A DNA stretch of 64,000 nt, taken from positions 1-64,000 of IMG/VR virus record IMGVR_UViG_2061766007_000015; one strand, written 5' to 3'. The DNA comes from a virus. Taxonomy: Duplodnaviria > Caudoviricetes. Both the position numbers and the translations under genes were made by a program. The notes beneath the pieces are model-generated. The model was not told the origin of the DNA, searched no databases, and was given only the letters and a program-made list of their open reading frames with translations. Below are positions 21,703 to 22,706 of the stretch, one piece after another (position 1 is the first letter of the stretch; every line of letters begins with the position of its first letter).

Positions 21703-21735
21703 ATTATACAACGTGTTTAAGATAAAAGCAACAGG
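21703..21735 (-). promoter_or_regulatory. Class II promoter
   Basis: CCTG-TTGCTT-17-TATAAT. Confidence 0.85.
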
Positions 21736-21763
21736 CAAGACAAATCTTAGTATCTTGCCTGTT
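21730..21763 (-). terminator. Terminator of the RNA array
   Basis: 11-bp AACAGGCAAGA/TCTTGCCTGTT stem + GCTTTT. Confidence 0.75.
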
Positions 21764-21770
21764 AGTTAAA

Positions 21771-21905
21771 TCGGTGAGATGGGATTTGAACCCACAAATA
21801 TCTGATAAGTACTTCTATATCCGGACTCTATTTTCCTCGTCATCGATACATTACTGAGTTTAACCGGTTCTCAGTAAACGACTCTACCTCTTCGTCCACT
21901 CACCT
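21771..21905 (-). ncRNA. Oversized tRNA-like RNA (135 nt)
   Basis: Acceptor GGTGAG/CTCACC, Leu/Ser-type D arm, T arm GTGGG-TTCAAAT-CCCAT; anticodon/variable region replaced by two long hairpins. Confidence 0.7.
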
Positions 21906-21907
21906 AG

Positions 21908-21979
21908 CGGGAACAGAAGGATTCGAACCTTCAACCAGACGATTAACAGCCGCCTGCTCTACCATTGGGCTATGTTCCC
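21908..21979 (-). tRNA. tRNA-Asn (GTT)
   Basis: Canonical cloverleaf GGGAACA...GGCGG-CTGTTAA-TCGTC...GAAGG-TTCGAAT-CCTTC-TGTTCCC. Confidence 0.92.
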
Positions 21980-21980
21980 T

Positions 21981-22125
21981 GGTCGGTTTAAGTAACCGAA
22001 ACTGCACATCTTCCGAATTTGGCCTGCTCGTATATTAAGACAATCCTTTGAACTTACCGTTTGCACGGCTGTTCGTCTTAATATCTTACACTGGGTCACG
22101 GTAACATTTGCTCTCTAACCCTCGC
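21981..22125 (-). ncRNA. Structured RNA between tRNAs
   Basis: Perfect 10-bp stem 22032-22041/22075-22084 enclosing GAAC..CCGT-GCAA-ACGG..GTTC (GNRA loop). Confidence 0.5.
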
Positions 22126-22214
22126 TGAGAACAAAAGGACTCGAACCTTTGTCTGGACTATCCATCGATATCTTCGGATTTCAAGTCGTATTTTACCAAT
22201 TAAACTATGTTCTC
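22126..22214 (-). tRNA. Degenerate tRNA-Ser(TGA)-like, 89 nt
   Basis: Perfect acceptor and T arms, CT-TGA-AA loop, long variable arm; anticodon stem with 2 mismatches; A73. Confidence 0.55.
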
Positions 22215-22217
22215 GGG

Positions 22218-22306
22218 CACCCCGTAGTGGACTTGAACCACGATATGGCCATACTGAGTTTGTCTGTTACTAAGACCAGCGTACTCGACTCTTGCGCTCA
22301 CGGAAT
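22218..22306 (-). tRNA. Degenerate tRNA-Leu(TAG)-like, 89 nt
   Basis: Acceptor ATTCCGT/ACGGGGT, GCG/CGC D stem, CT-TAG-TA loop, GTGG-TTCAAGT-CCAC; weak anticodon stem. Confidence 0.45.
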
Positions 22307-22405
22307 CTATGGTTTCTTTTCACATTACACTATACGGGGTATATTAATTTTTAAATTTGTCGGTCTCTCACAAACAGTTTATCAACTGCGGCACATCTCG
22401 ACTAC

Positions 22406-22606
22406 TACCTTGGGTGAGGATTCGCACCTCACATGGACTTCATTGACGGACGTGGCACTCATTAACTGAGGACTTGCTCTATTCTCTACGTCAATGATTG
22501 ATTGGTGGAGGCGTACTATCTGCTTTACCCACGTTTTTTATGAGCCTACAACACGCACCATTTCCTATTAGCGATATTTAGCGTCTACCTATTCCGCCAC
22601 CAAGGT
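22406..22606 (-). ncRNA. Giant tRNA-scaffolded RNA (201 nt)
   Basis: Perfect acceptor ACCTTGG/CCAAGGT, Leu-type D arm GGCGGAATAGGTAGACGC, T arm GTGAGG-TGCGAAT-CCTCAC; about 125-nt multi-hairpin insert. Confidence 0.75.
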
Positions 22607-22673
22607 ACTGTCTTTCATAAAAGGAGTCAATATATGTCGTGAAGCGTATCATTCTCGTTCACTTCACAATAAC

Positions 22674-22706
22674 ATTATACTAAATATTTACTGATATTGC
22701 AACAGG
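22674..22706 (-). promoter_or_regulatory. Class II promoter driving RNA array
   Basis: CCTG-TTGCAA-17-TATAAT. Confidence 0.85.

Follow-up and report, generated by a model that had tools for sequence, protein, structure and literature searches.

Element A, a 201-nt element on the minus strand of a phage genome, has the frame of a class II tRNA-Leu in which a long insert takes the place of the anticodon and variable arms. It stands first in an operon-like array of tRNA-shaped units, contains no hidden tRNA by the searches described below, and belongs to a family of RNAs whose frame helices covary. We consider it probable (roughly 0.6) that element A is an intact gene for a tRNA-Leu-framed, stable, non-decoding RNA that is excised by tRNA enzymes and whose lineage-specific insert, called the cargo here, does the work. 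That element A is transcribed, processed and stable, and that the cargo is its working part, we infer.

The stretch of DNA analyzed (the window, 64,000 nt) covers the greater part of a virus record that is 73.6 kb long and has direct terminal repeats. The phage encodes a tape-measure protein, PolA, a UvsX-like recombinase, helicases, and an endolysin. Its PolA is closest (~40–44% identity) to those of Clostridium phage phiCTP1 and Streptococcus phage Dp-1, and DNA of the window is present in bovine gut runs; the host is therefore probably a rumen Firmicute. On the minus strand, ~1040 nt are free of genes between the stop of the recombinase (22709) and the start of the next ORF (21665), and the array lies in this gap. 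Twenty-nine loci found through the neighboring UvsX-like recombinase had no tRNAs and no similarity to the array, which places the array outside the conserved phage backbone.

Anatomy of element A and of the array

Read directly on the minus strand, element A has a perfect 7-bp acceptor stem followed by A73, a Leu-type D arm, and a TGCGAAT T loop (Table 1), just as the sequence-only reading had it. The acceptor stem, A73, and a D arm with G18 and G19 are features of class II tRNA-Leu (RF00005). The D arm is nearly identical to those of Lactobacillales—one base off that of a genuine Weissella tRNA-Leu—and the T loop keeps the T54...A58 layout. Element A differs from class II tRNA-Leu in its length of 201 nt, in having no anticodon arm, and in its T arm, which has a stem of 6 rather than 5 bp, does not keep U54-U55-C56, and has G in place of U55 (G55). 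The pair 3–70 is C-G. Two measurements are revised here. The six pairs of the T stem give an acceptor/T stack of 13 bp rather than 12, and the insert, put earlier at about 125 nt, measures 148 nt between the D arm and the T stem.

Table 1. Features of element A (element numbering in the first column) and of the array that it heads, in window coordinates
Feature	Coordinates	Strand	Basis or remark
Element A, 201-nt tRNA-Leu-framed RNA gene	22406–22606	-	direct reading; ends matched exactly by leave-one-out covariance model R1
Acceptor stem, 5' strand ACCTTGG (1–7)	22600–22606	-	pairs perfectly with 22407–22413
Leu-type D arm GCGGAATAGGTAGACGC (10–26)	22581–22597	-	G10-C26, C11-G25, G12-C24
Insert (cargo) replacing anticodon and variable arms, 148 nt (27–174)	22433–22580	-	
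Cargo domain 1 (47–104)	22503–22560	-	predicted folds
Cargo domain 2 (110–167), 9-bp stem TCATTGACG/CGTCAATGA and inner CTCA/TGAG hairpin	22440–22497	-	direct reading and predicted folds
T arm, 6-bp GTGAGG/CCTCAC and loop TGCGAAT (175–193)	22414–22432	-	direct reading
Acceptor 3' strand CCAAGGT (194–200) and discriminator A (201)	22406–22413	-	CCA not encoded
Predicted sigma-70-type promoter TTGCAA-17-TATAAT heading the array	22674–22702	-	10/12 consensus matches, best site of the region; predicted from consensus
Leader, ~60 nt, with GTGAAG...CTTCAC hairpin	22607–22667	-	start site inferred from promoter position
Rest of the array after element A	21771–22405	-	ARAGORN, Rfam, R1
Spacer, 67 nt	between element A and unit B	-	
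Unit B, tRNA-like, ~122 nt	about 22217–22339	-	
89-nt tRNA with abnormal anticodon arm	22126–22214	-	tRNA score 50.5 bits
Structured unit, 146 nt	21980–22125	-	z -2.69 against shuffles (1/200)
tRNA-Asn, normal	21907–21979	-	
Unit D, tRNA-like, 135 nt	21771–21905	-	
Predicted intrinsic terminator closing the array, 14-bp stem then T run	21729–21764	-	sequence prediction

The cargo has two domains, and both stems described for it from the sequence alone are present on direct reading. Domain 1 is predicted to form a bulged TGGTG-CGTG/TACG-(CCTC)-CACCA stem around a GU-rich hairpin with an A-rich 7-nt loop; TGGTG (47–51) pairs with CACCA (100–104), and CGTG with TACG inside it. In domain 2, the two strands at 110–118 and 159–167 form nine perfect pairs, and CTCA (137–140) and TGAG (146–149) lie within them. 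An anticodon loop of 7 nt had been said to be impossible to draw, and full enumeration agrees: the sole hairpin with a 5-bp stem, a 7-nt loop, U33, and R37 is a weak one inside the insert, with 4 of the 5 pairs formed.

The folding energy of the whole molecule is only modestly unusual compared with that of shuffles (z -1.86). The pattern of D arm followed by T loop, however, is expected 0.00 times in the shuffled window, and the frame recurs with covarying stems in 29 other distinct sequences, from which we conclude that the fold of element A is beyond chance.

The array spans ~940 nt from promoter to terminator and holds five tRNA-shaped units, of which element A is the first. Unit B has ACCCCGT/ACGGGGT ends and a GTGG-TTCAAGT-CCAC T arm, with no recognizable D stem or anticodon arm; no detector called it, and its folding energy is no better than that of shuffles (z 0.15). 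In the 89-nt tRNA, Infernal puts 24 nt in the anticodon loop, whereas the ARAGORN call is Ser(UGA), with three of the five anticodon-stem pairs formed. In run X5, a relative has many substitutions and small deletions here (22151–22199), indicating that this region evolves fast. The 146-nt unit has a 10-bp stem around a GCAA-loop hairpin, ends in ...ACCGACCA, and has no Rfam match; it is probably another processed RNA of the array. The D arm of unit D is of the Leu type (GACGAAGAGGTAGAGTC) and its T loop, TTCAAAT, is an ordinary one; positions 1 and 72 are mismatched (A1-G72), and an 8-bp stem closing an 11-nt loop stands at the anticodon position. It scores 25.6 bits with the Rfam tRNA model (below the cut-off of 29) and 23.1 bits with R1, the covariance model described below. 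As the latter is the level of real tRNA-Leu genes, unit D shares the Leu frame without clearly belonging to the family of element A. The sequence GTATAATGTTATTGT occurs at the promoter of the array (22668–22684, minus strand) and again past the terminator (21710–21722, minus strand), before the next ORF; the same type of promoter seems to restart transcription downstream of the array.

A family of RNAs with the G55 tRNA-Leu frame

IMG/VR contigs, metagenome contigs, and bacterial genomes were scanned with patterns consisting of the D arm, a variable distance, and GGTGCGAATCC. The patterns fixed most of the D arm and the T loop and left the acceptor and T stems free. In phage, prophage, and metagenome DNA, the frame of element A was found in 30 distinct RNAs of 98–201 nt; the bacterial genomes with members are of Levilactobacillus, Weissella, and a Desulfatibacillaceae MAG. 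The common frame consists of a 7-bp acceptor stem, the D arm of element A, and a 6-bp T stem (13-bp stack), with G-C invariant at both stem junctions and a TGCRAAT loop containing G55. The D arm is identical in all members found, even at the positions where the patterns tolerated W, Y, or R, although the scans required most of the motif.

The helices that the scans left free covary strongly. Across the frame helices, 97.4% of cells are paired, as compared with just 31–48% in slid controls, and 70 cells are doubly changed, as compared with 18.4 in shuffles (none of 500 shuffles reached 70). Six of the seven acceptor pairs are changed on both sides across the family. The T stem is 100% paired across the family and covaries at three of its six pairs.

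A covariance model, which the sequence-only reading had proposed as a check, was built from 19 members with the window left out (R1). It recovered element A over its full length (76.9 bits, E 1e-20, model positions 1–159), with the exact ends 22606 and 22406. In the three bacterial genomes (Levilactobacillus, Weissella, and the Desulfatibacillaceae MAG), R1 gave 70–105 bits to family members and 21–31 bits to genuine tRNA-Leu genes. It also found two additional copies in Weissella that the patterns had not, and these keep G55 (loop TGCAAAT) and the 6-bp stem. The scans found no tRNA with a normal body that has the D arm of the family together with a G55 loop. G55 and the 7/6 stem geometry thus mark the family, being retained in the copies found by R1 and found on no normal tRNA body. 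Consistent with this, 59 of 61 occurrences of the G55 loop in 735 kb of collected loci come after a Leu D arm. The discriminator varies (A in 17, T in 10, and C in 2 of the 30 members), so a single protein partner shared at the 3' end is not obvious.

Members of the family occur in tRNA arrays, next to tmRNA and ROOL, or, in prophages, directly upstream of packaging genes. A single 122-kb phage has three members with different cargoes, a ROOL RNA, and a tRNA-Leu(UAA)-like gene. The ROOL RNA is at locus L072 (8833–9455), and a ROOL gene is located 1.4 kb from a family member. The tRNA-Leu(UAA)-like gene (locus L093, ~1501–1624; IMGVR_UViG_3300028591_000118, 64179–64302) is 124 nt long and has normal arms, with a hairpin-forming insert of ~40 nt in an otherwise normal anticodon loop.

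An exact search of IMG/VR for the T arm plus acceptor of element A itself found nothing. When the array and two other family members were compared by blastn with 50,697 phage records, ordinary tRNA pieces were the only matches. The cultured phages related to this one through their DNA polymerase (Clostridium phage phiCTP1, Streptococcus phage Dp-1, and Bacillus phage Flasso) contain no family member.

Cargoes and a proposed division of labor between frame and cargo

On the preferred reading, the array would be transcribed as a single precursor, from promoter to terminator, which would include element A and its neighbors. The frame consists of Firmicute-type tRNA-Leu parts, namely an acceptor/T minihelix and a D/T elbow, with the codon-reading half exchanged for a 148-nt cargo of two hairpins. 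The host RNase P, RNase Z or exonucleases, and CCA-adding enzyme would recognize this frame, and element A would be cut out as a stable L-shaped RNA. In tRNAs, it is this minihelix and this elbow that RNase P, RNase Z, CCA-adding enzyme, and bacterial LeuRS read, while the anticodon-side parts that are missing from element A are those read by the ribosome and most synthetases. The frame keeps what the tRNA-processing enzymes and LeuRS read and drops what the ribosome reads, a pattern that makes function approachable as a choice among being processed, being charged, and being bound by a host factor. The frame would give processing signals and stability, and the cargo would do its work on a bound partner from the host or the phage. 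With a 13-bp acceptor/T stack, G55, and no anticodon, element A should be kept from decoding on the ribosome.

The cargoes are unrelated between lineages. In local alignments judged against shuffles, the insert of element A was not significantly similar to that of any other member, and the longest antisense match of its cargo to the phage's own transcripts is 11 nt, which is the chance level. A candidate motif common to the cargoes of element A and one other member (L033), TGTARGCT..TAAAAAA, was rejected, as 65 of 200 shuffles were equally good.

For a 158-nt gut subfamily, there are 12 variants from different metagenomes (95% identical). Four internal helices in this subfamily are 97–100% paired, with compensatory changes at three pairs (CG/AU/GC; CG/UA; UG/CG/UA), and a 24-nt single strand is invariant. 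Helices kept paired through compensatory changes indicate that the cargo of this subfamily is under selection. Selection on the cargo of element A would be an extrapolation from it.

In several lineages, the cargo is closed by an ATAG.../...CTAT helix abutting the T stem, which is the position of the class II variable arm, and just 9–16 nt or a separate hairpin is left at the anticodon position. The closing helix is backed by compensatory change in the 158-nt subfamily. As a universal feature of the family it was rejected, being no better than shuffles in most members, element A included. Element A carries CCAT just 5' of the T stem (CCAT in 2 and CTAT in 19 of 30 members), and in a single-sequence helix search its closing helix beside the T stem was weak and no better than in shuffles. 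In the relatives with comparative support, the cargo occupies the variable-arm position, and of the anticodon arm there remains a vestige or nothing; whether this applies to element A is uncertain.

The runs listed as containing DNA of the window included no RNA run; contigs of four DNA runs were compared with the window. A stretch of 65 nt over cargo domain 1 recurs with 3 differences and then diverges in a low-depth contig of an unrelated bovine run (X10). In a contig of run X5, apparently 64 letters replace 22434–22611 (with a flank of only 29 nt), which would leave a unit of normal tRNA length; we take this as no more than a hint of cassette exchange.

That the frame is conserved while the cargoes differ could equally mean that the frame rather than the cargo is the functional part. 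Element A would then be a tRNA-Leu mimic bound, and perhaps charged, by LeuRS or another protein that reads the elbow and acceptor. It might serve as a sponge, as a non-ribosomal leucine donor, or as a decoy for a host defense that attacks or senses tRNAs, and the cargo would merely block translation or add secondary features. The invariant part of the family is exactly the acceptor/D/T half, and element A combines A73 with a D arm one base from that of a genuine host tRNA-Leu. Bacterial LeuRS ignores the anticodon, tolerates minimal substrates without anticodon and variable arms, and relies on A73 and the D/T tertiary core, which is in keeping with such a role. We nevertheless find it rather unlikely that the frame acts by itself, since the discriminator varies among members (A in 17 of 30), G55 changes the elbow that such proteins read, and the cargo helices of the 158-nt subfamily are kept by compensatory change, which a plug would not need.

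Another unlikely possibility, in our estimate, is that a dedicated, translation-proof tRNA-Leu frame acts as a natural 'tRNA scaffold', which matures, stabilizes, and displays interchangeable cargoes (including whole tRNAs), exchanged like cassettes from phage to phage, that serve host takeover or counter-defense; examples would be the protection of tRNAs against anticodon nucleases and the titration of a host factor that binds tRNAs. Biotechnologists use a 'tRNA scaffold' to stabilize recombinant RNAs, a trick that nature seems to have reached as well.

Some cargoes are tRNAs. The members from Weissella and Levilactobacillus prophages hold a genuine tRNA-Ile(GAU) as their cargo (60.2 and 41.6 bits with the Rfam tRNA model), and another family member has a tRNA-like unit inside (31.7 bits). 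The complete tRNA-Ile(GAU) nested in the Leu frame was observed in L042 (2469–2651), L049, and L046/L048/L031/L035, which come from Weissella and Levilactobacillus genomes of named strains and appear to be prophages; members of the Levilactobacillus type additionally have an 18-bp hairpin at the anticodon position. Nested tRNAs suggest that the frame may be a carrier or precursor that only delivers or times a cargo released by processing, much as RNase P and RNase Z would free an embedded tRNA, and GOLLD RNAs sometimes carry tRNAs in their linker (PMC12286853). For element A we regard this as improbable: ARAGORN and Rfam find no tRNA inside its cargo, no processing site is evident, and most cargoes of the family are not tRNAs. 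The Levilactobacillus and Weissella members may give an experimental entry, if the strains are obtainable and the apparent prophages inducible.

Search for a hidden tRNA and comparison with known RNAs

The sequence-only reading had named two results that would speak against a novel tRNA-derived noncoding RNA, a match to a known Rfam family and splicing that restores a tRNA-Leu. None of the 4227 families of Rfam 15 matched 22406–22606 even at E<=10, the tRNA family RF00005 (gathering score 29 bits) included, and ARAGORN was silent on element A with and without its intron mode. Splicing was tried in silico. About 800 single deletions inside the insert were made per sequence, giving products of 72–96 nt that were scored by ARAGORN. 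None of the 800 deletions of element A gave a tRNA, and no full-length tRNA was obtained from any of the 30 members. In a positive control, a normal anticodon and variable arm grafted onto the frame of element A was called tRNA-Leu, whether or not G55 was present and whether the T stem had 5 or 6 bp.

These results bear on the view that element A is a tRNA-Leu gene with one or more introns removed to yield a decoding tRNA, which we consider very unlikely. Its insert has no match to a group I intron or another ribozyme in Rfam, no rejoining of exons yields a tRNA, and known group I introns are larger than 148 nt, in agreement with the earlier remark that the insert is shorter than typical ones. 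A protein-spliced (bulge-helix-bulge) intron is likewise unsupported: no RtcB, Rnl2-type RNA ligase, splicing (tRNA-intron) endonuclease, or CCA-adding enzyme scored above cut-off in a search that covered the genes of the phage only, and no deletion restores a tRNA. The 6-bp T stem and G55, moreover, were never found on a normal tRNA body. A spliced tRNA would be in line with the normal tRNA length of the run X5 replacement, with the insert in the anticodon loop of the tRNA-Leu(UAA)-like gene of the three-member phage, and with the published interpretation of oversized phage tRNAs as containing introns (PMC6784885).

It is extremely improbable that element A is a decaying tRNA-Leu pseudogene or functionless recombination debris: although no relative of its cargo was found, and a Weissella copy (L088) without its 5' acceptor strand indicates that decay occurs in the family, element A has perfect 7-bp and 6-bp stems with all invariant frame bases, stands first behind a strong predicted promoter in a compact phage genome, and belongs to a family that covaries and scores far above real tRNA-Leu genes with R1.

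Among described RNAs, the nearest to element A is RNA1 of phage T5 (NC_005859, 30501–30644), annotated as a 'tRNA-like stable RNA with unknown functions', and the two are the same kind of object. RNA1 lies within a phage tRNA array. Its ends pair like an acceptor stem, its D arm (CCGGAATTGGTAGACGG) is of the Leu type, it has a T arm, and ~90 nt stand where the anticodon and variable arms would be; element A likewise combines an oversized body with ends like those of a tRNA and belongs to a phage tRNA cluster. RNA1 differs in its ordinary 5-bp T stem and TTCAACT loop (U55). It is the only match of R1 in T5, and its score of 20.2 bits is no higher than those of real tRNA-Leu genes, so that a common ancestry with the G55 family finds no support in it. 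The species 1 and 2 RNAs of phage T4 (rnaC and rnaD; NC_000866, 70908–71171) are also small stable RNAs, which end a phage tRNA cluster, and rnaC has a canonical T arm and paired ends. However, they have no Leu-type D arm and no full-length match to R1, and are analogous to element A in setting without being members of its family.

Oversized tRNA genes with conserved inserts, described as 'enigmatic introns', occur in Lak megaphages, and one of these inserts may encode a tRNA (Devoto et al. 2019, PMC6784885), which parallels the tRNA-Ile nested in G55-family members. In the Lak genes, removal of the insert gave an assignable anticodon and tRNA type, whereas no deletion restores a tRNA in element A; splicing is likewise undemonstrated for the Lak introns (PMC6784885). 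The order of acceptor, D region, long inserted body, T arm, and acceptor 3' strand is shared with tmRNA, and phage tmRNAs adjoin some G55-family members. Element A is nonetheless not a tmRNA: its D arm is a complete one of the Leu type, it lacks both G3-U70 and a tag reading frame, and neither ARAGORN nor Rfam RF00023 detected it, while the tmRNAs of related phage loci were detected. ROOL and GOLLD are, like element A, large structured phage RNAs in tRNA islands, and GOLLD can embed tRNAs, but both are far larger, have unrelated folds, and show no match to element A.

The reading of element A as a tRNA-derived, non-decoding RNA therefore stands, and the novelty claimed for it holds in part. 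Literature searches found no published description of the G55 frame and no Rfam family for it, and a 2026 preprint deals with three 'bacterial tRNA mimic' families that are other RNAs. The family is thus new to Rfam and to the searchable literature. Stable RNAs of phage tRNA arrays are, as a kind, old (T5 RNA1 and the T4 species 1 and 2 RNAs came earlier), and element A is not a singleton but one of a large family. To our knowledge, the 'stable RNAs' of phage tRNA clusters have gone unexplained since the T4/T5 era, and we know of none with a function. At least one class of them is now a defined, widespread family with a diagnostic frame. Since ARAGORN and Rfam skip this frame, annotations of phages and prophages show only empty intergenic DNA where its genes lie.

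The six short matches of the pattern scans are RNAs of 98–102 nt, which were likewise rejected by ARAGORN. In two 102-nt members (L070 and L071), a 5-bp hairpin with the loop TTCTAGA, resembling a CUA (amber-reading) anticodon, is located 6 nt past the D arm and before an 8-bp hairpin that resembles a variable arm; ARAGORN made no call on either.
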